NCBI GenBank assembly: GCA_966250015.1
Contig: CBINFS010000015.1
Coordinates: 6,608 to 70,607, forward strand
Direction: 5' to 3'
DNA length: 64,000 nt
Origin: an uncultured bacterium
Lineage (GTDB): Bacteria; Bacteroidota; Rhodothermia; Rhodothermales; DASSAV01
Part shown: positions 1 through 11,841 of the stretch, one piece after another
How the letters are laid out: each line of letters starts with the position of its first letter
Position numbering within the stretch: the first letter of the stretch is position 1
Notes under the pieces: generated by a model
What the model was told of the DNA's origin: nothing
The model's database searches: none
The model's input: only the letters and a program-made list of their open reading frames with translations
Made by a program: the position numbers and the translations under genes

Positions 1-220
1 GCGCGTAGGTATCCCAGGCGTCGGCTCCCACGAATCCGGTTACCGTCACCGTATGCCCGAGTCCTGCCAGCACCGTTGCCACGTTTACCGCCTTTCCGCC
101 GGGGTCGTCCTGCTCCCACTCAACGCGGTTCACTTCCCCCACCGTAAACCCCGGGATCGAAATTGAACGGTCGATAGACGGATTCAGGCAAACGGTGGCA
201 ATCGAGTTTCCGATATTCAT
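1..220 (-). CDS. 1-phosphofructokinase/tagatose-6-phosphate kinase family (PfkB) sugar kinase, N-terminal part; runs off left edge; absent from ORF track
   Basis: Manual translation from ATG at 220: MNIGNSIATVCLNPSIDRSISIPGFTVGEVNRVEWEQDDPGGKAVNVATVLAGLGHTVTVTGFVG. This has the FruK/LacC N-terminal LNPSID motif and PfkB signature GGKAVNVA. Confidence 0.88.
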   Translation of the reverse strand, partial: MNIGNSIATVCLNPSIDRSISIPGFTVGEVNRVEWEQDDPGGKAVNVATVLAGLGHTVTVTGFVGADAWDTYA

Positions 221-385
221 CGCGCAAGGACATTTAGATTCGGACCATCACCCCCTACCCAAAACTGGCGCCCGCACAGGTTTATGAACAAAATAACCTC
301 TCGACCTGTCCGAACGGAATAAAACAACGTATCATTCCGGAGCCAAATAAATACCGGCCACCTTCCAACAGACCTTTTTTTCGCC

Positions 386-1552
386 ATGCGTGGAAGAACG
401 CTCCAACACGTCTTCTTCTTCATTCTTCTCTTCATCATTACGGTTGCGTTTATCTGGCTCATCCGTGCCTTCATTGAACCTATCCTCTGGGCGGCCATCC
501 TGGCGATCATCTTCCGGCCCATTCAGAAAAGATGGTTGAGGGTATTTAAAAACCGGGTCTCTACGGCTTCACTTTTTTCCCTCATCACCATCATTTTTAT
601 CGTGATCATCCCCCTTTCATTGCTTGGCGTGGCCGTTTCAAATGAGGCGATTAACCTGTACGAAGGCATAACAGAAGGCAGGATAGACGTTCAAAAGCCC
701 ATCCAGATGATGCAACAGGCGGTGCCGGTTTTAAACGAGTTTCTCGAACGATTCGGCATAGAGACAGAGCGTATCCGGGAAAACCTTTCAAATATCGCCG
801 TCACTGCCAGCCAGTACCTTGCCTCTCAGACGGTGGCGATCGGCCAGAACACCCTCCGGATCACCGCCCTGTTCTTCATCATGCTGTACCTGCTTTTCTT
901 TTTCCTGCGTGACGGCGACCGACTGATCGATTCCTTCGTGAAGGTCCTGCCGCTTGGGGACGAACGTGAACGGAGGCTCTTCAGCAAGTTCGCGGAAGTT
1001 TCGCGAGCCACCATCAAAGGAACGCTGGTAGTAGGCGTTATTCAGGGCGCATTAGGTGGGTTCATATTTTGGGTTCTCGGCATCAGCGCGCCGATCTTCT
1101 GGGCCGTGTTGATGACCGTCCTCTCCCTCCTGCCCGCCATTGGAGCTGCCATTATCTGGTTCCCAGCCGCCGTCATTCTGATCGTGACGGGCAGCTACAT
1201 CAAAGGTTTGATCCTGCTCGCCTTCGGAACCGGCGTGATCAGTCTGGTCGACAACTTCCTTCGCCCTGTGCTGGTAGGCAGGGACACACGAATGCCCGAC
1301 TACCTCGTACTACTCTCCACCCTGGGCGGACTCGCAGTATTTGGCATATCGGGCTTCGTGATCGGACCCGTAATCGCAGCCCTGACTATCTCCTTCTGGC
1401 AGATGTTCGAAGAGGAATACGCCGTCAAAGAAGACGCCTATGCCATAAGTCCGCCGGTTGAGACTCCTCCGACAGATGAAGCCGACTACCCCCTCGATTT
1501 ATCAGAGCAGGAGCAACCGGCCGGTCAAGACGGCGACTACGAAGACGCCTGA
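386..1552 (+). CDS. AI-2E family (PerM/YhhT-like) membrane transporter
   Basis: 388 aa, multiple hydrophobic helices, family-typical LSLLPAIGAAIIWFPA and DNFLRP..G..G.V.GP motifs. Confidence 0.88.
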   Translation: MRGRTLQHVFFFILLFIITVAFIWLIRAFIEPILWAAILAIIFRPIQKRWLRVFKNRVSTASLFSLITIIFIVIIPLSLLGVAVSNEAINLYEGITEGRIDVQKPIQMMQQAVPVLNEFLERFGIETERIRENLSNIAVTASQYLASQTVAIGQNTLRITALFFIMLYLLFFFLRDGDRLIDSFVKVLPLGDERERRLFSKFAEVSRATIKGTLVVGVIQGALGGFIFWVLGISAPIFWAVLMTVLSLLPAIGAAIIWFPAAVILIVTGSYIKGLILLAFGTGVISLVDNFLRPVLVGRDTRMPDYLVLLSTLGGLAVFGISGFVIGPVIAALTISFWQMFEEEYAVKEDAYAISPPVETPPTDEADYPLDLSEQEQPAGQDGDYEDA

Positions 1553-1559
1553 GTCATCG

Positions 1560-2828
1560 TCAAGGCAAGGCTACCGGGGCGTTATCGAGCAGATACTGTT
1601 CGGCCTCAACCGACCACAGGCCGTTGTGTTTTGCGACGATGGCCGCAAGATCGGCATAGAATGGATTGTCCTTACCCAATTTCTCAAGGTCGTCGATGGC
1701 AAACAGCTCCAGCTCACGTTGCGTATAGATCAGCTTCTTACCTCCCGGAATCTTGGGCAGGTTCATCGTCACGTCTATGACGGCGTTTAGCCCTCCGACG
1801 TGCGTAACGAGGGCGGCGGGATCGATCCGTCCAGCCGACATCAGTTCGATGGCCTTACGCATGTCATCCGTGTTGCCACCGCTCGTCGCGACGACGTGCG
1901 TAAAGCCATAGTGGACGTTGTAGAAATTGATCTCCGCCGAGAAGTTGGGGTCTGTCGGCCCGGCAAAGAAGTTCATACAGCCGTCGCGGCCGAGGATTGC
2001 GTCGGCCATCTCAACGACCGATCTTACTGGAGCCATCACGAAAACGTCGTCAAACCCCTCACCTCCGGTTAACGACACCAGATATTCCGTCGGATTTTCG
2101 AGCTTCCCTGTATTCACGTATTCGACTCGGATACCGTCCTTGGCTGCCTTTTCCGGCGGGAAGAGCTTTTTTGCACGGGCAAGGCGGTCGTCGTCGATGT
2201 CGGTAACGACAAACAGACCCGGACGCCGGTCTCCGTGAAGAGCATAGTCGACGGCGCCCAGCCCCATCGGACCCGCGCCGCCAAAAATCGCCATGTTTCC
2301 ACCTTCCTTGATCCCCATTTCGTGCACGTACGTGCCGTGAGGCCGGTGGTAGCTTGCGTTGAACGCACCAACGATGCACGACATCGGCTCCGCGAGCGAA
2401 GCATAAAAGAACCCTTCACCCGTATACTCGAGGAGGCAGTCCATCTCCATCACTTCATTCGGGATGATGACGTGTGTAGCATCACCTCCGATGTATTGGT
2501 AGGAATAGCCGGGCGCATCCAGGCTCCCTTTGTAGTTCAACGCGGGCTGGATGGAAAAACGGCTGCCGGGACTGAACCGGTCCTTCCACTTGGCGCCGAC
2601 TTCCAGAATCCTCCCCGAGAACTCGTGCCCGATGATGACGGGATTCTCCGCCACGTTGTCCGGTACGCGCTTGTGATCCGGACCCTGTTTCGTCGCCTTA
2701 TGGGAAGACATACAGATGCTATCGGATATGACCTCAGCCAGGATCTCATCTTCCTTGAGCGGGGGAAGCTCGAACGTTTCCAGCCTGAGGTCATTTTTGC
2801 CATAAAGGCGAACTGCTCTCGTTTTCAT
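1560..2828 (-). CDS. MDR-family zinc-binding dehydrogenase, L-sorbose-1-phosphate reductase (SorE/YggP)-like
   Basis: MKTRAVRLYGKNDLRLETFELP, SDSICMSS, IGHE, SLAEPMSCIVGA, GGAGPMGLGA and NFYNVHY closely follow the SorE/YggP pattern. Confidence 0.85.
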   Translation of the reverse strand: MKTRAVRLYGKNDLRLETFELPPLKEDEILAEVISDSICMSSHKATKQGPDHKRVPDNVAENPVIIGHEFSGRILEVGAKWKDRFSPGSRFSIQPALNYKGSLDAPGYSYQYIGGDATHVIIPNEVMEMDCLLEYTGEGFFYASLAEPMSCIVGAFNASYHRPHGTYVHEMGIKEGGNMAIFGGAGPMGLGAVDYALHGDRRPGLFVVTDIDDDRLARAKKLFPPEKAAKDGIRVEYVNTGKLENPTEYLVSLTGGEGFDDVFVMAPVRSVVEMADAILGRDGCMNFFAGPTDPNFSAEINFYNVHYGFTHVVATSGGNTDDMRKAIELMSAGRIDPAALVTHVGGLNAVIDVTMNLPKIPGGKKLIYTQRELELFAIDDLEKLGKDNPFYADLAAIVAKHNGLWSVEAEQYLLDNAPVALP

Positions 2829-4127
2829 CTACTTACTCTCCACGGATTGTCTTGTGTCTTTACCGATCTCGCTGAAAATGCGAATACGCTCCTTCAAATC
2901 GGGGTACTCGAGGATGGTGCCAGGCGAGAAGAGGCCTGAATGTAAGTCCCGCGTTGCCGCTTTTTCGTGGCCTATGAGCGCCCAGGTCGACGTTTTGAGG
3001 TGGCTGAACTCGGGCCGGAGAATGGCTTCACAGACGAAGTTTTGGCGTGGCGAGTTGATGTCCTCACCACTTATCTGGAAGAACCCGTACCGGTCGCACA
3101 TTTTCTGCACGCGTTCGAGTTGGGCCAGCGTATTACGCGAAGGCATGTACGTCACGGCGTGAAAGCCGAGTTCTTTTAAAATTTCAAAGAGTAGATCGAG
3201 GTATTCGTCTTCGAACGCCAGGCTCTTTTTGTCTCCCGTCACCGATACACCGACGTCGCCGAGGTAAGCGTAAGCGCAGATCGCACCGACCTGATTGGCC
3301 AAGGCGACAATTTCCGTCACCGGGGCGCATTCGTCGGTCGCGTCAATGTAAAACGCGGGAACCAGGTCGCTTTTGAGCACACCTAAAAGATCGTATAGGA
3401 AGTACGGGTTGTTAGGATCCGAAAGCACTCCTTCGAACCGCGCCGGCACGTCGATTTTTACACCATTCCTCAGAAACTCTAGCAGCGTCCTTCCTCTTCC
3501 AAACCGCTTTTCAAGCTTCACGGCAAGAGCAAAGAGAATGTGTCGCTCTGTGACGCTGCCCCCTTCCGGCTGCTTCGAAAGCGTGATGACGTCCCGTTCG
3601 TAGTCTAGCTCTACTCCTGTCCCGCGAAGCAGGTCGTTCAGCCGAGCCGTCATCTTTCTATTCCGCTCGCCCCTCAGCATTCGGTAGGGCTGGAGAAAAG
3701 CTTCAACTGTCTCGAACTGCGTGTGCGGGATGCCGTGGATGGCAATGTAGGCCGAAGAAAGTTGATCGGGGTGATTGATCCTCCGGCCGGCGAGCGGCGT
3801 CGCGGAAAAATCGGCTCGGACCTCTACCCCGACGGTCACGGGCAGGTCCATGATAGCGCCCGCTTCGATGAACTCGACGACGCCGCTGAGGGTGTCGTGA
3901 TCCATGATCCCCGCGGTCGATAACCCCGCCTCGCAGCTCTTCCATACGGCCATGGCCGGTGAATAGGGGGAGAAGGAATAGAACGTGTGGATGTGATTGT
4001 TGACCGCATCGGTTCTCACCGATGCGGGCATTTCCCCACGCTTTATCCGATCGGCGAGCACTCGAAGCGTTTCCAGCCGCGTAGCGCGATCGGCGTCGTT
4101 CAAACGGTTTACGTCAATATTTTCCAT
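2829..4127 (-). CDS. PHP-domain metal-dependent phosphoesterase-like protein
   Basis: NNHIHTFYS (HxH), GIMDHDT, VGVE, IAIHG and SGEDINSPRQ are PHP-fold metal ligands; abuts the downstream gene with 0 bp gap. Confidence 0.8.
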   Translation of the reverse strand: MENIDVNRLNDADRATRLETLRVLADRIKRGEMPASVRTDAVNNHIHTFYSFSPYSPAMAVWKSCEAGLSTAGIMDHDTLSGVVEFIEAGAIMDLPVTVGVEVRADFSATPLAGRRINHPDQLSSAYIAIHGIPHTQFETVEAFLQPYRMLRGERNRKMTARLNDLLRGTGVELDYERDVITLSKQPEGGSVTERHILFALAVKLEKRFGRGRTLLEFLRNGVKIDVPARFEGVLSDPNNPYFLYDLLGVLKSDLVPAFYIDATDECAPVTEIVALANQVGAICAYAYLGDVGVSVTGDKKSLAFEDEYLDLLFEILKELGFHAVTYMPSRNTLAQLERVQKMCDRYGFFQISGEDINSPRQNFVCEAILRPEFSHLKTSTWALIGHEKAATRDLHSGLFSPGTILEYPDLKERIRIFSEIGKDTRQSVESK

Positions 4128-4137
4128 GCTTATGTAC

Positions 4138-5919
4138 TTATTTGAGCATGATCTGCCCCCCGGTCACCGGGATAGCCTGACCCGTCTCGTATTTCTGTTC
4201 GATGACGTATAGTATGGCACGAACGACGTCGTCGATACGGCATCCTCTGCGCATGGGTACTTTTTCTTCGTAAAATCGTCGCACGTCCTCCACCGTCTTC
4301 GCACCGGGGACCTTCCTGGCGTCCAGGTACTGCTTGAAAAGTCCCTTCTCCGGGTCCGACCACAACGGTCCATCGAACAGATTTCCGGGACAGATGGCAT
4401 TCACCTTGATGTTGTAGGGCACCAGCTCGAGCGCAAAGCTCTGCGTCAGGCCGATGCCACCGAACTTGCCCCCTGCGTACGCAAAGTTCTTGTTGCTCCC
4501 CGCCAGCCCCGACTTTGAATTGATCTGAATGATATCGGCGAAGTACGTGTCGTCGAACTCGTGCTGTACCTTCATGGGGATCGACGCGTACTTCGTGCAA
4601 AGGAAATACGCCGTGTAGTTTACCCGCGTCACTGCCTCGAAACGGTGCAAATCCATCTCCTCCAGGCCGCCGGCGTGCAGGATGCCCGCGTTGCTGACGA
4701 ATATGTCGAGCCCGCCAAACTCGGCCACCGTCTCGACGATCAAATCCTTTACCGCCACTTCATTCGTCACGTCTACCTCAAACGTCAGGATACGGTCAGC
4801 CGATTCCTGCCCCTCGTGGCTCTCGCGCAGCTCCGCAAGCCGGCTTCCGTTCAGGTCTGCAAAGACAACGTTGGCCCCTTCGGCAAGAAGCGCTTCAGCT
4901 ATTCCCCTGCCGAAACCCTGCGCTGCACCCGTCACAACCGCAATTTTTTCAGGCAGACGTAAATAACCAGGCTCGGGCGCGGGCTCGACCTCCGTTCCAA
5001 ACTCTCCTTCTCCGGCAGCGTACGGCTGAATGCCACCAAAAGAGCTTGCGACTACTTCCGCCTCGACTACGCTCTTGAAGAGGTTGTATGCCCTGACCGC
5101 ATCTTTCCTGCCCGTTCCCCAAACGAATAAGCCAAGACCTTCCAGTCCGATCACGACCGGCAGTCTCCCGTAAGTCTCCTGATAGTTCGAGATGGCCTGC
5201 CGAATCAGCTCGTATTGCCGGCTGAGGTCCGGATCAGATCCGATGAAAAGGGTTTCGGGTCCCAAAATCCTGGCGAGCGTTGGTGTTAGCGCGAGCGGCA
5301 AGTTTGAAAAGGCTTCCCGGTCACGCAGGAGACGTGATGTCGCGACGTTATTCCTGAACAACAAAGACGATGACTTCTGGCCCTTACCAAGCAACATCCG
5401 AATTGCTGGAGCAATCAAGAGGAGTCGATCCTTGTCGAAAGGCTCAGGTGTGTAATCCGGCATTGTGGCCGAGCGGGCGTTGAGCGTTTCCAGCACGACC
5501 GAAATCCGCTCCACGAGTCCTTCCGGCGAATAGCTCGCCACGTACATCCCTCTGTTGCGCACGAACAAAAGGTCGGGATTCGCCCACTCATTCGATGGCT
5601 TTATGTCGGACTCAAACCAGAACTGCTTTTCACCGAAGAGCGCCTGCGCCGTTTTCTGCCCTTCTTTCGCGCAAACGAGTCCCAGCGCCTGGGACGGCGC
5701 CAGAAAGGCAACAAGGTTGCCGTCGATGATGTCGTGTACTACCGCCAGCTCGACCTCAGAGTGTACCGGCGCCGTCGAAACGCGAAGGTTGCCTTCGATT
5801 CCATCCGTGTGATCTACCACGAACAGATCTTCACCTGAGCGCCAGGACAACGAGGAAAGAAAAAGCTCGGTCCTTTTCCTCAATTGTCTGTACAGATCGA
5901 ACAGCGCTGACTCATCCAT
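4138..5919 (-). CDS. Fusion of a degenerate class II aldolase-like domain and an SDR (sorbitol-6-phosphate dehydrogenase SrlD-like)
   Basis: C-terminal TGAAQGFG, SNAG, QINSKSG and YAGGKFGG (YxxxK); N-terminal ~320 aa with PLALTP and PVVIGLEGLGLFVWG, reminiscent of the aldolase II fold. Confidence 0.78.
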   Translation of the reverse strand: MDESALFDLYRQLRKRTELFLSSLSWRSGEDLFVVDHTDGIEGNLRVSTAPVHSEVELAVVHDIIDGNLVAFLAPSQALGLVCAKEGQKTAQALFGEKQFWFESDIKPSNEWANPDLLFVRNRGMYVASYSPEGLVERISVVLETLNARSATMPDYTPEPFDKDRLLLIAPAIRMLLGKGQKSSSLLFRNNVATSRLLRDREAFSNLPLALTPTLARILGPETLFIGSDPDLSRQYELIRQAISNYQETYGRLPVVIGLEGLGLFVWGTGRKDAVRAYNLFKSVVEAEVVASSFGGIQPYAAGEGEFGTEVEPAPEPGYLRLPEKIAVVTGAAQGFGRGIAEALLAEGANVVFADLNGSRLAELRESHEGQESADRILTFEVDVTNEVAVKDLIVETVAEFGGLDIFVSNAGILHAGGLEEMDLHRFEAVTRVNYTAYFLCTKYASIPMKVQHEFDDTYFADIIQINSKSGLAGSNKNFAYAGGKFGGIGLTQSFALELVPYNIKVNAICPGNLFDGPLWSDPEKGLFKQYLDARKVPGAKTVEDVRRFYEEKVPMRRGCRIDDVVRAILYVIEQKYETGQAIPVTGGQIMLK

Positions 5920-5942
5920 TTTGACAGTGAGGGTTTAATCTT

Positions 5943-6033
5943 AAAACGAAACCGGAACCCGCGATAATCTATGATGTGCAAATGAGAAAAAACAACGAAA
6001 GTGTTTGGAAAGCGAAAAACAAGGAAAAAGAAA
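5943..6033. promoter_or_regulatory. Divergent promoter region with candidate DeoR-family operator repeats
   Basis: A-rich intergenic region between the SDR fusion and deoR; AAAACGAAA at 5943 and GAAA cores at 5986, 5997, 6008 and 6030 (11-bp phase), resembling AgaR/SrlR-type TTTCGTTT repeats. Confidence 0.45.
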
Positions 6034-6065
6034 GCGGATATTAAGTTGAACGATTAAATTTGACT

Positions 6066-6821
6066 ATGAATACACCGCTATCGGAGCGCGAACGCACCAT
6101 ACTCGACCTGCTGACGACCGAAATGAACCGGTCGGTGGCTGAGCTGAGCGACATCTTGCAGGTGTCCCGGGTCACCGTTCGAAACGACCTGAACAGCCTG
6201 GCAGGAAAAGGTATGATCGTTCGAACCCGCGGAGGCGCCATTCCGGCCTTCCATCCGGATGTCATCCGGCACCAGCGGACCAGGGTCGATCAGAAGACGC
6301 GGATCGGGCAGGCAGCAGCGGCACTCGTTGAGGATGGAGACACGATTATGATCGAGGCCGGCACGACGACGGCCGTCGTCGCCCAGCACTTGCTGGGGAA
6401 GCACGATCTCCAGGTCGTGACCAATTCGACGCTCGTGCTCTCCGCCCTGCGCAGTTACCCTTCGGTGAGACTGACCATCGTGGGGGGCGAGTTCAGGCCG
6501 GCCACCGAATCGCTGGTCGGGCCTCTGGCGCTCTCAGCCCTCGACAGGTTCCACGTGCGCCTTGCCTTCGTCGGTACGGATGGATTTTCCCTGCAAGGAG
6601 GGCTCACCACCAACTTCCTCGACGGAGCCGAAATCGTACGGAAAATGGCTGAACGAGCGGAGACGACCATCCTTTTAGCCGATTCATCCAAGTACGGCCG
6701 CCGCGGATTCGTCAGCGTGCTGCCGGTTGAAAGCATCCATAAGCTGATTACAGATTCCGAGCTCCCCGAAACGGCCGTTCAAGAGCTTAAGAATGCCGGA
6801 ATCGCCGTAATCACCGTTTAA
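6066..6821 (+). CDS. DeoR/GlpR family transcriptional regulator
   Basis: N-terminal HTH (VSRVTVRNDLNSLAGKG..RTRGGA) and DeoRC sensor domain (EAGTTT, VVTNS, LADSSK). Confidence 0.93.
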   Translation: MNTPLSERERTILDLLTTEMNRSVAELSDILQVSRVTVRNDLNSLAGKGMIVRTRGGAIPAFHPDVIRHQRTRVDQKTRIGQAAAALVEDGDTIMIEAGTTTAVVAQHLLGKHDLQVVTNSTLVLSALRSYPSVRLTIVGGEFRPATESLVGPLALSALDRFHVRLAFVGTDGFSLQGGLTTNFLDGAEIVRKMAERAETTILLADSSKYGRRGFVSVLPVESIHKLITDSELPETAVQELKNAGIAVITV

Positions 6822-6838
6822 GCAAAAGAGGTTTTTAC

Positions 6839-8083
6839 ATGGCAACGGACGTGATCCTACCCAAACAGGGACAATCCGTAGAATCCTGCCTTATCGTCGA
6901 GTGGAAGGTCGCAGAAGGCGAGCGTGTGGAGGAGGGGGACGTGCTCTGCGTGATCGAAACCGACAAGGCCACCTTTGACGTCGAGGCTCCGGCCAGTGGC
7001 ACGCTGCTTAAGACGCTCGTCGAGGAGGGCAGTGACGTACCGGTGCTGACCCGGATTGCCGTCATCGGTGAGCCGGGTGAAGAAGTAGCGACGGTCACAG
7101 CCGAACCCGAGCCTGCTGCGCCTGCCACCGTGGCCGTTGAGGTCGCCGGCCGGGGAAACGGAACGGGTACGAAAGACTCCAAGATGCAAAAAATCAGGAT
7201 ATCTCCTCGTGCAAGACGGCTGGCTGAAGCCCGGCAGGTCGACATCTCGGCCCTGAAGGGTACCGGCCCGGCCGGACGGATCATCGTCCGTGACGTCGAA
7301 GCCTACCTCGCCCGCCCGCGTCCGGTCGCCGAACCGGTGTTTTCACCCCCCGTCCCGGCAGTGACTGCCGGAGAGGAGTTCGAAGAGGTCCCCCTGAAGA
7401 GCGTCAGGAAGGTTATCGCAGAGCGCATGTTGCAATCCGTGCAGACCTCGGCACAGTATACGCTTCACACCACCGCCCCTGCGGGAGCCCTGCTGGCCTA
7501 CCGAAAATTGCTAAAAAACAGCCCCGAGAGCTACGGATTGCAGCAGGTCACCATTAACGACCTGGTGCATTTTGCCGTCGCTCGCCTGTTACCACGGTTC
7601 CCTGACCTCAACAGCCATTTTCTCGGCGACCGGTTCCGGCGGTATCGTGACGTCCACCTCGGCTTTGCCGTCGATACCGATCGCGGCCTGATGGTTCCGG
7701 TAATTCGAAATGCGTCGAAGCTGAGCCTGAGGCAGCTTGCGGTCGAAGCGGCTCGCCTCCGCGATCGCTGCCTCAACGGAACCGTGACCACCGACGAGCT
7801 AAATGGCGGGACCTTTACGGTGTCCAACCTCGGTAGCGCGGGCATCAGCTTCTTCACCCCGGTGCTGAACGTACCTCAGGTTGGCATTCTAGGCGTGGGA
7901 AGCATCGAGCTGTATCCGGTTGAACGAGACGGTGACGTCGTGTTCGAAAAGAAAATTGCCCTTTCGCTTACGACCAACCACCAGGTGGTAGACGGCGCTC
8001 CGGCCGCACGCTTCCTCCAGGAGCTGAGCGGCTTGCTCGAACACTTCGAGCTGATCGCTGCTGATCCGATTTTAGGTAACTGA
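6839..8083 (+). CDS. 2-oxoacid dehydrogenase E2 (dihydrolipoamide acyltransferase), single lipoyl domain
   Basis: Lipoyl motif IETDKAT, E3-binding ISPRARRLAE, catalytic NHQVVDGAPAA. Confidence 0.92.
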   Translation: MATDVILPKQGQSVESCLIVEWKVAEGERVEEGDVLCVIETDKATFDVEAPASGTLLKTLVEEGSDVPVLTRIAVIGEPGEEVATVTAEPEPAAPATVAVEVAGRGNGTGTKDSKMQKIRISPRARRLAEARQVDISALKGTGPAGRIIVRDVEAYLARPRPVAEPVFSPPVPAVTAGEEFEEVPLKSVRKVIAERMLQSVQTSAQYTLHTTAPAGALLAYRKLLKNSPESYGLQQVTINDLVHFAVARLLPRFPDLNSHFLGDRFRRYRDVHLGFAVDTDRGLMVPVIRNASKLSLRQLAVEAARLRDRCLNGTVTTDELNGGTFTVSNLGSAGISFFTPVLNVPQVGILGVGSIELYPVERDGDVVFEKKIALSLTTNHQVVDGAPAARFLQELSGLLEHFELIAADPILGN

Positions 8084-8115
8084 ATATAAATATTAGACTA
8101 TAGAGGCCAGTTGTC

Positions 8116-10581
8116 ATGCCCAAATCCGTTGTTGTCGATCCGAACAGGGTACGCCGTGCAGGTGTGTTAAAGACCCGTGACATTCCCCTGAACCAGTACG
8201 TACCCGATGTACAGGTTGAGATCGCCCGATATGGCCGGGATGGACTGAAGAAAGTCTATCACGACATGCTCGTCATCCGAGAGTTTGAGACGATGCTCGA
8301 TAACATCAAACGGCAGGGCTCGTATCTGGGTATCGAGTACACGCACGCAGGACCGGCTCACCTATCAATCGGACAGGAAGCCACGGCCGTCGGACAGGCG
8401 CTGCCACTCGGCGTGGAAGATTTCATCTTCGGGTCTCATCGAAGCCACGGCGAGATCCTGGCCAAGTGCCTCTCGGCGATCGATAAGCTCGACGACGAGA
8501 CCCTCATGCACATCATGGAAACCTACATGGACGGCGCCCCCCTCCGCGTCGTCGAGAAGGGGCATCAGGGTTCCGTGAAAGACCTCGCCATCGACTACGT
8601 GCTGTACGGCACTTTGGCGGAAATCTTCGCGCGGGAGAATGGCTTCAACAAAGGCCTCGGCGGATCGATGCACGCCTTCTTTGCGCCCTTCGGCAGCATG
8701 CCGAACAACGCCATCGTCGGAGGATCGGCCGACATCGCGGTCGGTTCGGCACTGTTCAAACGGGTCAACCGCAAACCCGGCATCGTCATCGCCAACATCG
8801 GTGACGCCTCTTCCGGGTGCGGGCCGGTGTGGGAAGGGATCATGTTCGCCGCAATGGACCAGTACCGAACCCTCTGGGATAAGGAGGTCGGCGGCGCCCC
8901 CCCCATCCTGTTCAACTTCATCAACAACTTCTACGGCATGGGTGGTCAGCCGGAAGGCGAAACCATGGGGTTCGGCATCCTCGCTCGCCTCGGCGCTGGC
9001 GTGAACGAAGAGGCCATGCACGCCGAACGGGTGGACGGTTACAACCCGTTTGCCGTGGCCGACGCGGTCTCTCGCAAAAAGGAGCTTCTCCTGGAAGGCC
9101 GCGGCCCCGCCATGCTCGACGTCGTCACCTACCGTATTTCCGGGCACTCGCCCTCCGATGCCTCCTCCTACCGCACCAAGGAGGAAGTGACGCTCTGGCT
9201 TGAGCACGACTGCGTACAGACGTATGGTAAGTACCTGTTGGACAATGAGGTCGCCACGAGTAACGACATCGAGGAAGTCAAAAATGAGATAACCGAACGG
9301 ATCCGGAAAGCCCTGAGCCTCGCAACCTCCGACGAGATTTCGCCGCGAATAGACACGTCGAAGGGAGATCCCATTGGAGACTTCATGTTCTCCAATAAGA
9401 CGCGTGCTAAAATGGCCGAGGGAGAGCCCGAGGTTCTCATTCCCAAGGAGGAGAACCCGAGGGTTCAGGCGAACGCCCGGAAGTCTCGCTCCGCTTTTGA
9501 TGAAAACGGGCAGCCGCTGCCCAAATCAAAGGTCCTGTCGCTCCGCGACGCCATTTTCGAAGCGATTCTCGACGGCTTCTACACCGATCCAACGATGATT
9601 GCCTTCGGTGAAGAGAACCGCGACTGGGGTGGCGCCTTCGCCGTCTACCGAGGTCTCACCGAAGCCTTACCCTACCACCGCCTGTTCAACTCGCCCATTT
9701 CGGAAGGTGCGATCGTAGGAGCAGCCGTAGGGTATGCCCTGAGCGGCGGACGCGTCGTGGCCGAGCTGATGTACTGTGACTTCATGGGCCGCGCCGGCGA
9801 CGAGATCTTCAACCAGATGTCGAAGTGGCAGGCCATGTCGGCCGGCGTGCTCGAAATGCCCCTCGTGCTCCGCGTATCGGTCGGCAGCAAATATGGCGCG
9901 CAACATTCACAGGACTGGACGTCCATCGTCGCGCACATCCCCGGCTTGAAGGTATACTTCCCGGCCACGCCGTACGACGCCAAGGGAATGATGAACCTGG
10001 CCCTTCGGGGCACCGATCCGGTCGTGTTCTTCGAAAGCCAGCGGCTCTACGACATTGGCGAAATGTTCGTGCCGGGCGGTGTTCCGGAAGGGTTCTACGA
10101 GATCGAGGAGGGAATGCCGGCGGTTCGCCGGGAGGGCAGCGATCTGACGATCCTGACGATCGGGGCCACCCTCTACCGTGCACTCGAAGCAGCCGACGAG
10201 CTCCAGCAGAAGTACGGTCTGTCTGCCGAAGTGATAGACGCCCGGTTCATCAACCCGCTCAACTACGACCCGATCGTGGCGTCCGTCGAAAAGACCGGCA
10301 AGCTGTTGCTGGCTTCGGACGCCGTAGAGAGAGGCTCGTTCCTCAACACGATCGCGGCTGAGGTCACGCAGCTAGCATTCGACGCGCTCGACGGTCCGGT
10401 CGTCGTGGTGGGCAGCCGGAACTGGATCACACCGGCAGCCGAGATGGAGTCGAGCTTCTTCCCGCAGAAGGAGTGGATCATCGACGCCATCCACGAGCGT
10501 TTGCTACCGTTACCCGGCCACGTGGTAACAACCAACCAGAGCCTCGACGAAAAGCGCAGAAGAAACCGATTGGGCGTCTGA
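8116..10581 (+). CDS. Fused E1 alpha/beta TPP-dependent dehydrogenase
   Basis: [18 protein letters not shown]-binding GDA...NN, YRISGHS, and beta-part [12 protein letters not shown] and GAQHSQ. Confidence 0.92.
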
Positions 10582-10635
10582 TAAGCTGACTTGGAAATCG
10601 ACCCGTCGGGCATCCGTGGATTGCCCGGCGGGCAC

Positions 10636-11841
10636 TTACCGGATCAACGAAGCGATCTCCTCCGCTTCTTCTTTACCGGCACCCTGTTCGATCCACATGC
10701 GGGTGAGAAACCCGCTATCGATCGGACGTTCCTGCTCTTCAAGCAAAGCGACGGCAGCCTGTGTCCCCTTTATGAAGCGCTCGGGATGGATTCCAGCCTC
10801 TCGTGCCCGCCGTATGGTGCCGATCAGCCGGTCGTCCCAGGCGAGCTTTCGGAGCGGGTCACGCGTGAGTCGTTCGGCCGTATCGCGGAGGTATGGGTTC
10901 AACATACGGTTGAGGAGGTCTTCCGCATACGCCGTATACCCTTCCGGCGTAAAAAGCGGGTCCACACCTTGATGCCGGTGGATCATCGCACCCCCTGACT
11001 CCACTAGGAAAGCTTCCCTGATTGTTGCTAAAAGGCCAGGGTCCTTCGTTGCTTCGTAGGCATACCGGTATCCCCTCTGCAAACACTGGTACCCGAGAAG
11101 CGCGTGCGTCGCGTTGTGGCCGTACAGCTTGGCCTCTTCAAAGGGCAACAGGTCCTCCTTCTCGATAAAAACCTTGATCCCCCTGTCAAAACCCGGCAGC
11201 TTGATCGAAGAGATGAGAATCCTGTTGAATGCCTCGACGAGAAAAGCGCTGGTGCTGTCTTCCGTGACGGGAGCGAGACCCTCGCTTTTGATTCGGTCAG
11301 GGTCCGTTACCACACCGCTCATCTTACCGATCACGGTGTTGAGGATCTGGACACGCTTTCCCAGAAGATCTTGACTATCCCTGAGATACTTCGACAGGTC
11401 GGCATGTAACCGTTCGGCCGCGTGGTTATTGTTCTCGGCCGTATAAATGATTGCATTCGGAAGGCGAGGATCCGACAGCTTGAGGGCGAGTCCCTCGGCG
11501 AGAATTCGGGCCACCGAAGCCTCTCCCCTGTCGTAGAAGTCAACCGACGGCAGCGCGGTTGCAAGCTCCTTTGCCTGTCCGACGGCCTCGACGAGGCGAT
11601 CCCTGTCGGAGGGCTCGAGCGGGTTGTACACCTCGATCCCCACTATCGTATGGATCTCGATTCCGGTAAACGTTGCGACGTTGACCGTACACCGTCCGCT
11701 CCGACGAATCGCTTCAACGACCTGGGGATTCACTTCTGAAGCGACGAGCCTGTCGAAGTTACCCGACGTAAAAGCTTCTTGAAAAAATAGACCACTCTGA
11801 ATGGCGCCGAGACCAAAACCGACAAATACCCTGGAAGCCAT
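10636..11841 (-). CDS. Mannitol(-1-phosphate) dehydrogenase (MtlD)-like long-chain polyol dehydrogenase
   Basis: GFGLGAIQSG nucleotide-binding motif, TAENN, NTVIGKM, EAKLYGHNATHA and RDPLRKLAWDDRLIG. Confidence 0.75.
   Translation of the reverse strand: MASRVFVGFGLGAIQSGLFFQEAFTSGNFDRLVASEVNPQVVEAIRRSGRCTVNVATFTGIEIHTIVGIEVYNPLEPSDRDRLVEAVGQAKELATALPSVDFYDRGEASVARILAEGLALKLSDPRLPNAIIYTAENNNHAAERLHADLSKYLRDSQDLLGKRVQILNTVIGKMSGVVTDPDRIKSEGLAPVTEDSTSAFLVEAFNRILISSIKLPGFDRGIKVFIEKEDLLPFEEAKLYGHNATHALLGYQCLQRGYRYAYEATKDPGLLATIREAFLVESGGAMIHRHQGVDPLFTPEGYTAYAEDLLNRMLNPYLRDTAERLTRDPLRKLAWDDRLIGTIRRAREAGIHPERFIKGTQAAVALLEEQERPIDSGFLTRMWIEQGAGKEEAEEIASLIR

Follow-up and report, generated by a model that had tools for sequence, protein, structure and literature searches.

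Gene Content and Organization of the Locus

We analyzed a 64,000-nucleotide stretch of DNA (hereafter, the window) from contig CBINFS010000015.1 of an uncultured member of the Rhodothermales (Bacteroidota), the first 12 kb of which carry a DeoR-family regulator gene positioned between two divergent operons that bring together sugar-phosphate dehydrogenases and a thiamine pyrophosphate (TPP)- and lipoate-dependent dehydrogenase complex. Six of the genes, coding for a SorE-like medium-chain dehydrogenase/reductase (MDR), a PHP-type protein, an SrlD-like short-chain dehydrogenase/reductase (SDR) with an apparently dead aldolase domain, the DeoR regulator, an E2 acyltransferase and a fused E1alpha/beta protein (E1ab), constitute a conserved, co-inherited unit (hereafter, the module).

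The leftward operon, on the minus strand, begins with a 593-residue protein that combines an aldolase-II-like N-terminal domain with the SrlD-like SDR (positions 4138-5919; SDR Pfam matches and 228 bits in NF009050). It is followed by the 432-residue PHP-type protein (2829-4127; a weak PF02811 match at residues 45-106) and the 422-residue SorE-like oxidoreductase of the MDR/zinc alcohol dehydrogenase type (1560-2828; PF08240 (ADH_N) and PF00107 (ADH_zinc_N)). The rightward operon, on the plus strand, opens with deoR (6060-6821; PF00455 at 173.5 bits and PF08220 at 48 bits) and continues with the genes for the E2 dihydrolipoyl acyltransferase (6839-8083; PF00364, PF02817 and PF00198) and the TPP-dependent fused E1alpha/beta of 821 residues (8116-10581; PF00676 (E1_dh), PF02779 (Transket_pyr) and PF02780 (Transketolase_C)). 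Converging on E1ab is the gene for a 401-residue MtlD-like oxidoreductase (10636-11841, minus strand), with PF08125 (Mannitol_dh_C) as its sole domain match. The intergenic gaps measure 10 nt between SDR and PHP, 0 nt between PHP and MDR, 17 nt between deoR and E2 and 32 nt between E2 and E1; judged by this spacing, E2 and E1 are probably co-transcribed with deoR.

An earlier note on this DNA had placed the DeoR gene between a leftward and a rightward operon, with an MtlD-like gene converging on the right and no phosphotransferase system (PTS) encoded. Our open reading frame (ORF) listing and Pfam/NCBIfam scans recovered every gene that it named and bear out this arrangement, including the absence of PTS genes; neither a PTS gene nor an E3 gene was found in the first 12 kb of the window.

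Phyletic Spread and Co-Inheritance of the Module

The arrangement MDR-PHP-SDR/DeoR-E2-E1ab recurs in two other genera of the family (genomes G003 and G004; loci L097 and L098), with E1ab proteins 77-78% identical to that of the window, and the six-gene set is absent from the other 38 relatives searched. Outside the phylum, the core recurs in many Clostridia, Spirochaetota and other lineages at 55-72% identity, usually along with a gene for E3. In Anaerobacterium chartisolvens (L012), MDR-E2-E3-E1ab-DeoR-SDR-PHP form a single string, and a spirochaete codes for an orthologous deoR-E2-E1ab unit, the products of which are respectively 58, 45 and 71% identical to those of the window; this too suggests that the assignment of E2 and E1 to a transcript with deoR is right. 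Eighty further loci were fetched around homologs of the PHP protein, of which the 44 with 6 kb or more of sequence to either side form our well-flanked set. An SDR gene is present in 30 of these, a SorE-like MDR in 22, and E1ab, E2, E3 and DeoR in 21 each; among the 21 loci with E1ab, 20 have the SDR and 17 the MDR. Gene order varies between the loci, which favors selection for keeping the genes linked over descent of a single arrangement.

We then examined co-inheritance in 150 evenly sampled Clostridia genomes, many of them incomplete metagenome-assembled genomes, in which E1ab was found in 32, PHP in 28, the SorE-like protein in 36 and a rhamnulokinase-like gene in 82. By Fisher tests, which take no account of shared ancestry, E1ab and PHP are strongly associated (both in 26 genomes, E1ab only in 6, PHP only in 2, neither in 116; p = 3e-21), as are E1ab and the SorE-like protein (28, 4, 8 and 110; p = 4e-19) and PHP and the SorE-like protein (27, 1, 9 and 113; p = 6e-21). 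The rhamnulokinase-like gene occurs in 30 of the 32 E1ab-positive genomes (p = 1.6e-7) and in all 28 PHP-positive ones (p = 4e-9).

The view that mere chance brought functionally unrelated genes for sugar dehydrogenases and E1/E2 side by side can be put aside with near certainty: the clustering is kept across phyla despite shuffled gene order, and because of this conservation across genera and phyla and the genome-wide co-inheritance the arrangement lies far beyond chance, so that this view is already refuted. The earlier note's proposal that the dehydrogenases and the complex form a functional unit is thereby sustained.

In a phylogeny of the fused E1, the three Rhodothermales proteins cluster with the spirochaete sequence (support 100/100), with the Clostridia next and then the proteins of the Rhizobium pRL8 and Pleomorphomonas plasmids. 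The module has evidently passed from phylum to phylum. The copy in the window is a laterally acquired and trimmed version: its aldolase domain is dead, E3 is missing and an MtlD-like gene has been gained.

The SorE-like and SrlD-like Dehydrogenases

In the sorbose pathway, SorE converts L-sorbose-1-phosphate to D-glucitol-6-phosphate and SrlD/SorD converts glucitol-6-phosphate to fructose-6-phosphate, the pair shifting the carbonyl to the other end of the chain. The MDR of the window has both the domains and the full-length similarity of SorE: over 415 residues it shares 53% identity with the sorE product of the canonical sorC-sorD-sorFBAM-sorE operon of Citrobacter, and with other enterobacterial SorE/YggP proteins the figure is 52-54%. 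Its orthologs, at 58-70% identity, adjoin E1ab/PHP in Clostridia. No PTS (the sorbose sorFBAM included) or SorC is present in the window or in the 80 homologous loci, where the neighbors are E1/E2, PHP, SDR and rhamnose genes. We predict the MDR to be a ketose-1-phosphate 2-reductase acting on a 6-deoxy substrate.

The SDR domain (residues ~321-593, the last 270) best fits the sorbitol-6-phosphate dehydrogenase model NF009050, at 228 bits and below its cut-off of 307. It shows 37% identity to E. coli SrlD, and its stand-alone Clostridial form is 50% identical to SrlD. SorD was rejected as a model for this domain, with only 29% identity and SrlD being closer. Relative to the sorbose systems of Klebsiella, Citrobacter and E. 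coli (SorE with SorD/SrlD), the window thus shares an MDR at 53% identity to SorE and an SDR in the SrlD branch, and its dehydrogenase pair would likewise shift a keto group from end to end of a hexose phosphate. In contrast, it has no sorbose/glucitol PTS or SorC, it is linked to rhamnose genes and a TPP/lipoate complex, and its predicted product is a 1-deoxyketose-6-phosphate, not fructose-6-phosphate.

The N-terminal residues ~1-320 of the 593-residue protein match no Pfam family, including Aldolase_II, and a search with these 320 residues returned just two clusters among 5.8 billion proteins, the window's own and one other. Residues 56-593, however, align at 44% identity with a 668-residue aldolase-SDR fusion bearing an intact Aldolase_II domain, and it is by alignment with such longer fusions that we traced the N-terminal domain to an aldolase ancestry. 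The alignable fusions are proteins of 650-716 residues from Clostridia and Spirochaetota, in which an intact Aldolase_II domain is followed by the same SDR; they form a separate branch of the proteins labeled 'bifunctional aldolase/short-chain dehydrogenase' (~300 bits against cut-offs of at least 567). In a ten-sequence alignment, the window protein and one close homolog lack the GGGNTS loop, have F-L-A in place of HxH and N-R-G in place of N-H-G, whereas GGGNTS, HxH and NHG are kept in all eight other sequences; in the two related genera (G003/G004), still less of the domain is left. Hence, the 'aldolase-like' label of the earlier note is right as to ancestry but not as to activity: with all three zinc-ligand histidines gone, the domain is, as read from the alignment, a degenerate, presumably catalytically dead class II aldolase of the RhaE type.

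The characterized relatives of this architecture are the RhaEW fusions (B. subtilis YuxG and Chloroflexus Caur_2283), which have been assayed as rhamnulose-1-phosphate aldolase plus lactaldehyde dehydrogenase (PMC3870299). They share with our protein the class II aldolase-SDR fusion and, with the module, an occurrence in rhamnose loci with DeoR-type regulators; they differ in that the SDR of the window is nearer to SrlD and its aldolase domain is without the zinc ligands and the phosphate loop. The 593-residue protein is below the RhaEW cut-offs (TIGR02632, 150.6 bits against 568; NF006189, 139.2 against 634), and only its residues 248-589 are matched.

The homology of these enzymes to SorE, SrlD and MtlD would also be compatible with a hexose or hexitol route, the reading nearest to that of the earlier note, in which L-sorbose-1-phosphate, glucitol-6-phosphate, mannitol-1-phosphate or fructose-1-phosphate is brought to fructose-6-phosphate and then cleaved to glycolyl-CoA and erythrose-4-phosphate. 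Against it, neither the cluster nor the homologous clusters hold a PTS or a hexitol transporter, and glycolyl-CoA would have no obvious fate.

The Fused-E1 Complex and Its Regulator

The translated E2 displays a lipoyl motif (ETDKA) and a catalytic motif (NHQVVDG), with the lipoyl, E3-binding and catalytic domains all present, and both E1 and E2 have the domains expected of a 2-oxoacid/acetoin dehydrogenase complex. Their nearest Pfam/NCBIfam families are components of pyruvate dehydrogenase (PDH), which might favor a variant of the hexose/hexitol route in which the complex is nothing but a travelling pyruvate or branched-chain 2-oxoacid dehydrogenase. Yet E1 falls below the cut-offs of the named complexes, namely PDH, 2-oxoglutarate dehydrogenase (OGDH) and branched-chain 2-oxoacid dehydrogenase (BCKDH), its best scores being 235 bits against 321 and 173 against 394, and E2 misses every NCBIfam equivalog cut-off (best 281 bits against 445). 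Moreover, the housekeeping complexes of this genome are covered by other E1/E2 sets on contigs C17, C9, C47 and C21, and the pair in the window is therefore extra and specialized. Finally, strict anaerobes that use pyruvate:ferredoxin oxidoreductase carry this complex only alongside sugar genes (our genome survey; PMC3561251), and PDH activity has never been demonstrated in these anaerobes (PMC3561251). The genome has a single lpd-like gene (C5:110888-112255), and a dedicated E3 is absent from the window but present in the Clostridial versions.

Orthologs of the fused E1 are 59-72% identical in Clostridia and Spirochaetota, and the fused E1 proteins form a distinct subfamily of the acetoin/2-oxoacid dehydrogenase type tied to sugar gene clusters. 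More distant orthologs, at 54% identity, lie on plasmid pRL8 of Rhizobium johnstonii 3841 (L101, 75151-97547) and on a Pleomorphomonas plasmid (L102). Here the neighbors are sugar ABC transporters, RbsD/FucU, a sugar-phosphate isomerase/epimerase, carbohydrate kinases and a SorC-type regulator; in place of a canonical E2 there are a lipoyl-domain protein and an alpha/beta hydrolase ('acoC' in the Pleomorphomonas record). The pRL8 and Pleomorphomonas proteins offer a genetically tractable model for the E1 family.

Among characterized systems, acetoin dehydrogenase (AcoA/AcoB/AcoC/AcoL) is the closest parallel: both have an alpha/beta-type TPP E1, a lipoyl E2 and, in the versions of the module found elsewhere, an E3, and the reaction that we propose below is likewise an acyloin cleavage to acetyl-CoA and an aldehyde. 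The lipoyl protein and 'acoC' hydrolase of the alphaproteobacterial plasmids add to the likeness. The Caldicellulosiruptor counterparts of the complex are also nearest to Aco among characterized enzymes, at 33-42% identity (PMC8579813). On the other hand, E1 alpha and beta are fused in the window into an 821-residue chain with an N-terminal extension, butanediol/acetoin genes are missing, the regulator is DeoR and not AcoR/sigma-54, the Rhodothermales version has no E3, and the predicted substrate is a phosphorylated deoxy-sugar.

The regulator combines an HTH_DeoR domain with a DeoRC sensor domain and is 68% identical to its counterpart in G004. It scores below every named equivalog, the best being AgaR (196 bits against 260). 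Its inducer is likely one of the sugar phosphates.

The PHP Protein

Although the PHP protein is short of the gathering score of PF02811 (23.4 bits against 26.4) and far from the cut-off of the pAp phosphatase model NF041577 (28.3 bits against 400), it has over 8000 homologs at 55-60% identity, mostly in Clostridia, labeled just 'PHP domain-containing protein'. An AlphaFold model built from 15 sequences (pLDDT 86) retrieved with Foldseek, as best matches at probability 1.0, the structures 3e0f (BAD_1165), 2yb1 (Cv1693) and 9etk (RNase AM), with a TM-score of ~0.72 on the target, ~17% identity and ~150 extra residues in our protein. Many His, Asp and Glu residues are invariant in the 15 sequences, among them H45, H47, H77, E102, H131, H196 and H387, which include the N-terminal HxH and which we infer to be metal ligands. 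On this model, the protein would be a PHP-fold metal phosphoesterase-like enzyme of an unnamed family. TrpH/YciV (RNase AM) and the 3',5'-nucleotide bisphosphate phosphatase Cv1693 (COG0613) thus resemble it as best structural matches and in the HxH motif, but differ in that our protein is co-inherited with a sugar/TPP-complex module and not with RNA or sulfur metabolism.

In 12 of the 44 well-flanked loci, PHP stands beside housekeeping genes only (RNase T-like, YceG or phosphofructokinase). A housekeeping role was nevertheless rejected: every genome tested has one copy; where PHP stands alone at the locus, the same genome codes for E1ab (61-72% identical) and the SorE-like protein at other sites; and 122 of the 150 Clostridia genomes have no PHP gene.

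As a side observation, six of the 28 Clostridia PHP matches (G062, G121, G150, G159, G162 and G186) hold one in-frame TAG or TAA, the E1ab of G051 contains several stops, and the E3 beside E1ab in Biomaibacter is split into two frames. These in-frame stops may reflect decay of the module in some lineages or assembly errors.

The Link to Rhamnose and Other Deoxyhexoses

Pectin, mucin and bacterial surfaces have rhamnose and fucose among their major sugars. In the textbook pathways for these deoxyhexoses the end point is lactaldehyde, which anaerobes discard as 1,2-propanediol. Several lines of evidence tie the module to such sugars. In Biomaibacter acetigenes and another member of the Bacillota (L013), the MDR, PHP and SDR genes are interspersed with those for a rhamnose-type ABC transporter, rhaM, an isomerase, class II aldolases and a kinase (rhamnulokinase). 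More generally, module operons often hold RhaA (PF06134, at least 600 bits), a kinase scoring 517-520 bits in the rhamnulokinase model and a class II aldolase of 350-410 residues, and one (L061) has a lipoate-protein ligase. Together with the rhamnulokinase-positive genomes noted above, these rhaA, rhamnulokinase, rhaM and class II aldolase genes point to a 6-deoxyhexose (L-rhamnose, perhaps L-fucose) and not to the hexitol substrate (such as sorbitol, galactitol or mannitol) favored in the earlier note. We consider it very probable that the module is functionally coupled and linked to deoxyhexoses, and the hexose/hexitol route, with its variant of a travelling 2-oxoacid dehydrogenase, to be improbable.

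On contig C58 of this genome (G000:C58:12482-13792; L096:6482-7792, minus strand) we also observed a gene for a 436-residue double-domain protein of the class II aldolase/adducin family, with 50% identity to the stand-alone aldolase found in rhamnose loci of Clostridia; its neighbors are gap, pgk, a 3-hydroxyacyl-CoA dehydrogenase gene and pntAB, not sugar genes.

A counterpart of the cluster has been reported in Caldicellulosiruptor (Csac_0865-0876/Athe_0696-0706; van de Werken 2008, as cited in PMC4187192; PMC8579813), where it is described as induced by rhamnose and of unclear function (PMC4187192). In Caldicellulosiruptor bescii, Athe_0696 is annotated as the aldolase RhaD1, Athe_0698 as 'SrlD' (51% to E. 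coli SrlD), Athe_0699 as 'SorE' (54% to Klebsiella SorE), Athe_0700/0701 as lipB/lipA, Athe_0702-0704 as an acetoin-dehydrogenase-like E2, E3 and E1 ('predicted dehydrogenase in rhamnose utilization'), Athe_0705 as the DeoR regulator RhaR2 and Athe_0706 as rhaA (PMC8579813). The two clusters therefore have the aldolase, SrlD-like, SorE-like, E2, E1 and DeoR families in common, a likeness that rests on the gene content and identities published in PMC8579813; the Rhodothermales cluster differs in having no rhaA, functional aldolase, E3 or lipA/lipB and in the added MtlD-like gene. Accordingly, the earlier note's claim of a new, uncharacterized system is true of the biochemistry, the literature that we searched giving no description of the reaction of the complex, the PHP protein or the SorE/SrlD-like pair in this setting, but not entirely of the gene association as such, which was already on record in Caldicellulosiruptor (PMC8579813; PMC4187192).

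For Caldicellulosiruptor, the complex has been guessed to handle L-lactaldehyde, the known lactaldehyde reductase and dehydrogenase being absent (PMC8579813). In this alternative (Rodionov et al.), a classical aldolase would yield dihydroxyacetone phosphate (DHAP) and L-lactaldehyde, and the complex would oxidize the lactaldehyde to lactoyl-CoA, or methylglyoxal or pyruvate derived from it by the SDR or MDR to acetyl-CoA, with the SorE-like or SrlD-like enzyme as the missing lactaldehyde reductase or dehydrogenase. The absence of the known enzymes and the assignment of Athe_0702-4 to the last step agree with it (PMC8579813), as do the assayed lactaldehyde dehydrogenase activity of the RhaW SDR domain (PMC3870299), the aldolase-SDR fusions with an intact aldolase domain that adjoin PHP, and a spirochaete set that has no SorE. 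Further, rhamnose fermentation in C. saccharolyticus yields 1,2-propanediol, acetate, H2 and CO2 in a 1:1:1:1 ratio (PMC4187192), and this amount of propanediol requires a lactaldehyde reductase. However, disposal of lactaldehyde leaves unexplained the co-inheritance of three hexitol-phosphate enzymes (the SorE homolog at 53% identity, the SrlD-like and, in sister systems, the MtlD-like enzyme) as well as the PHP protein. The SDR of the window scores 228 bits in the sorbitol-6-phosphate dehydrogenase model against 150 in the RhaEW models, the alphaproteobacterial E1ab orthologs adjoin sugar kinases and isomerases, not aldolases, and action of a TPP-dependent E1 on a free aldehyde would be unusual. 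On balance, we regard this alternative as unlikely, if with more to recommend it than the hexose/hexitol route.

The MtlD-like Family and Its Sister Systems

The MtlD-like protein does not reach the cut-off of the best-matching MtlD model (108 bits against 356) and has thousands of homologs. We surveyed 83 loci of this family, drawn from three look-ups and one metagenome scan, and in ~29 of them the gene lies beside or within genes for an E1ab-like protein (E1ab'), E2 and E3. On the longer contigs among loci L105-L185, the order is DeoR-E1ab'-E2-MtlD-like-E3 (L105:1241-8777, L155:6066-15455 and L157:681-9290). The E1ab' of this sister system is also a fused E1, 38% identical to that of the window, and its loci often feature SDRs 49-51% identical to the window's, a second MDR (~30% to the SorE-like protein) and aldolase-SDR fusions; one has rhaA and a rhamnulokinase-like kinase. 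Other members of the MtlD-like family adjoin a PfkB kinase and a transporter.

What recurs is thus a pair of hexitol-phosphate-type dehydrogenases together with a fused-E1 lipoate complex, controlled by a DeoR protein. As its family recurs inside the sister DeoR-E1ab'-E2-E3 operons, the MtlD-like gene of the window, which the earlier note had correctly placed, is probably a functional accessory (a second hexitol-phosphate dehydrogenase) and not a bystander. The MtlD-type sister system also appears uncharacterized.

One sister operon has a gene for a HAD-family hydrolase directly after E3 (L127:10655-11542). This gives a weak hint that a phosphatase step may belong to the pathway, with the HAD protein as a possible non-homologous counterpart of PHP.

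Flanking Genes and the Divergent Intergenic Region

At the left edge of the window lies the 5' part (~82 codons; <1-247, minus strand) of a 1-phosphofructokinase-like PfkB gene, the whole of which spans G000:C15:5892-6854 (PF00294, E = 3.8e-52); it exceeds the 1-phosphofructokinase cut-off of TIGR03828 (297.5 bits against 292). The earlier note had counted it as part of the leftward operon. The gene is real, but only those ~82 codons lie in the window, and it is outside the operon, since a plus-strand gene for an AI-2E/PerM-family membrane transporter (386-1552; PF01594 at 175 bits), which converges on the SorE-like gene and goes unmentioned in that note, stands between the two. PfkB was rejected as a member of the module, being conserved neither in G003/G004 nor in other loci; no homolog of it occurs in any related locus that we compared. 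The presence of a 1-phosphofructokinase-like gene ~1.3 kb from the cluster, which might have spoken for the hexose/hexitol route, is countered by this want of conservation. PfkB stands alone, no fructose PTS genes lying in its neighborhood; the genes upstream code for a 412-residue protein without a family match and a 1232-residue hybrid sensor kinase with Reg_prop/Y_Y_Y domains.

The AI-2E transporter was rejected as a module member on the same grounds of conservation, and neither it nor PfkB nor the MtlD-like gene is beside the cluster in G003/G004. An AI-2E gene was also seen ~1.2 kb from the module in Anaerobacterium (L012:1-185) and in no other locus, which is probably a coincidence.

The region between the two operons (5920-6059), a presumptive divergent promoter/operator, contains CGAAA(G) repeats that are partly kept in G004 in an alignment of the three intergenic regions. 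Across the window the CGAAAG motif shows no enrichment (11 matches, with 7.9 expected), and it is absent upstream of the MtlD-like gene; we consider the repeats only a candidate DeoR operator. One weak -35/-10 match is found at 5941-5968, and a scan for promoters and terminators did not rise above shuffled sequence (six promoter-like sites against a shuffle mean of 4.5; nine terminator-like sites against 11.9).

A Proposed Pathway for Phosphorylated 6-Deoxyketoses

Bringing these observations together, we propose, tentatively and with slightly less than even confidence, that the locus is a DeoR-repressed, horizontally shared module for the use of a phosphorylated 6-deoxyketose derived from L-rhamnose, possibly also L-fucose. 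Its specific chemistry might be a keto transposition followed by an acyloin cleavage, a suggestion derived from homology that we hold a little less firmly still. Acetoin dehydrogenase E1 cleaves a methyl acyloin, and 1-deoxyxylulose-5-phosphate synthase (DXS) makes one from hydroxyethyl-TPP and an aldose phosphate. MtlD, for its part, converts mannitol-1-phosphate to fructose-6-phosphate, and 6-deoxy-L-sorbose-1-phosphate is a known product of condensation of the fructose-bisphosphate aldolase type from DHAP and L-lactaldehyde.

In the first step, an isomerase and a rhamnulokinase-like kinase encoded elsewhere (C6 and C33) would make a ketose-1-phosphate, either L-rhamnulose-1-phosphate or 6-deoxy-L-sorbose-1-phosphate re-formed by an aldolase from DHAP and L-lactaldehyde. 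With the latter variant, the second class II aldolase that many operons contain would find its explanation, as would the missing lactaldehyde enzymes. The SorE-like enzyme would then reduce the C2 keto group to give a 6-deoxyhexitol-1-phosphate, and the SrlD-like SDR, and/or the MtlD-like enzyme in the case of another epimer, would oxidize the carbon beside the methyl group. The predicted product is a 1-deoxy-2-ketohexose-6-phosphate, a methyl acyloin homologous to 1-deoxyxylulose-5-phosphate and identical or epimeric to 1-deoxyfructose-6-phosphate. In the fourth step, the TPP of E1alpha/beta would attack the keto carbon and free C3-C6 as a tetrose-4-phosphate, just as acetoin dehydrogenase E1 frees acetaldehyde. 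A substrate of sorbose/fructose configuration would yield D-erythrose-4-phosphate and acetyl-CoA, whereas direct use of L-rhamnulose-1-phosphate would give L-erythrose- or D-threose-4-phosphate, needing further conversion. Hydroxyethyl-TPP would reduce and acetylate the lipoyl-E2 to form acetyl-CoA, and the single Lpd of the genome (C5) would re-oxidize the lipoamide. The PHP protein would perform a required step, probably hydrolysis of a phosphate ester; it might hydrolyze a bisphosphate formed from tetrose phosphate and DHAP, clear a deoxyhexitol phosphate that is a dead end, or catalyze an isomerization without hydrolysis.

The proposed intermediate is not without parallel, in that 1-deoxyfructose-6-phosphate is a genuine bacterial metabolite, made by the glycyl radical isomerases YbiW/PflD and split by an aldolase to glyceraldehyde-3-phosphate and hydroxyacetone (PMC13450708). 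That route, from 1,5-anhydroglucitol/-mannitol-6-phosphate, thus shares with our scheme a 1-deoxy-2-ketohexose-6-phosphate as a real catabolic intermediate (PMC13450708); in the scheme proposed here, by contrast, two dehydrogenases would form it and an oxidative cleavage would yield acetyl-CoA and a tetrose phosphate.

With this scheme one can explain why the SorE-like, SrlD-like/MtlD-like and acetoin-type components are inherited together, as well as the DeoR sensor, the rhamnose link and the sister systems. Several points weigh against it. The substrate, its stereochemistry and the order of steps are read from homology and context. The scheme assigns PHP no definite step, although PHP is the most tightly linked gene. 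Within this genome, the supply enzymes are scattered or of moderate similarity: a rhamnulokinase-like gene (408 bits, below the cut-off) is accompanied on C33 by genes for an aldolase and an ABC transporter, and an isomerase with 46% identity to RhaI is encoded on C6, while RhaA and RhaM were not found. The spirochaete G052 has no SorE ortholog (best match 31%) despite having E1ab, E2, the aldolase-SDR fusion, PHP, rhaA and the kinase; therefore, the reduction step is dispensable or replaced there, and an oxidation-first variant, in which the SDR acts on rhamnulose-1-phosphate before cleavage, is conceivable. The alphaproteobacterial E1ab clusters have no SorE, SrlD or PHP. Shared ancestry, ignored by our Fisher tests, would temper the co-inheritance statistics, though we judge the pattern strong enough to stand. 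Lastly, the 1:1 propanediol yield of C. saccharolyticus (PMC4187192) fits the aldolase route with reduction of lactaldehyde, and the proposed route would thus not be the main flux in that organism under the condition used, a closed batch culture. As a matter of speculation, the module may come into its own where reducing equivalents can be disposed of, namely at low H2 or in aerobic life as in the Rhodothermales.

Implications

Possibly, then, though we would not yet wager on it, this locus represents an undescribed route that takes a 6-deoxyhexose fully to central metabolites, without three carbons being lost as propanediol, in which PHP does an essential step and the sister versions make up a broad enzyme class. 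The module is present in about one-fifth of the sampled Clostridia genomes, in addition to Spirochaetota, Rhodothermales and others, and induction by rhamnose has been known in Caldicellulosiruptor since 2008 (PMC4187192). If the proposed route is real, it would provide the first sugar phosphate substrate for a complex of the 2-oxoacid/acetoin dehydrogenase type, and oxidative cleavage of a sugar phosphate by thiamine and lipoate would be a new reaction type in carbohydrate metabolism. It would also give a reason why strict anaerobes keep a 'PDH-like' complex and would change predictions of carbon and hydrogen yields for biomass- and mucin-degrading bacteria. Further, three large unannotated families, the fused E1, the 430-residue PHP protein and the MtlD-like group, would gain functions. 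Even if the chemistry proves to be other than proposed, the pattern of co-inheritance delimits a clean unit of four families that can be put to the test.

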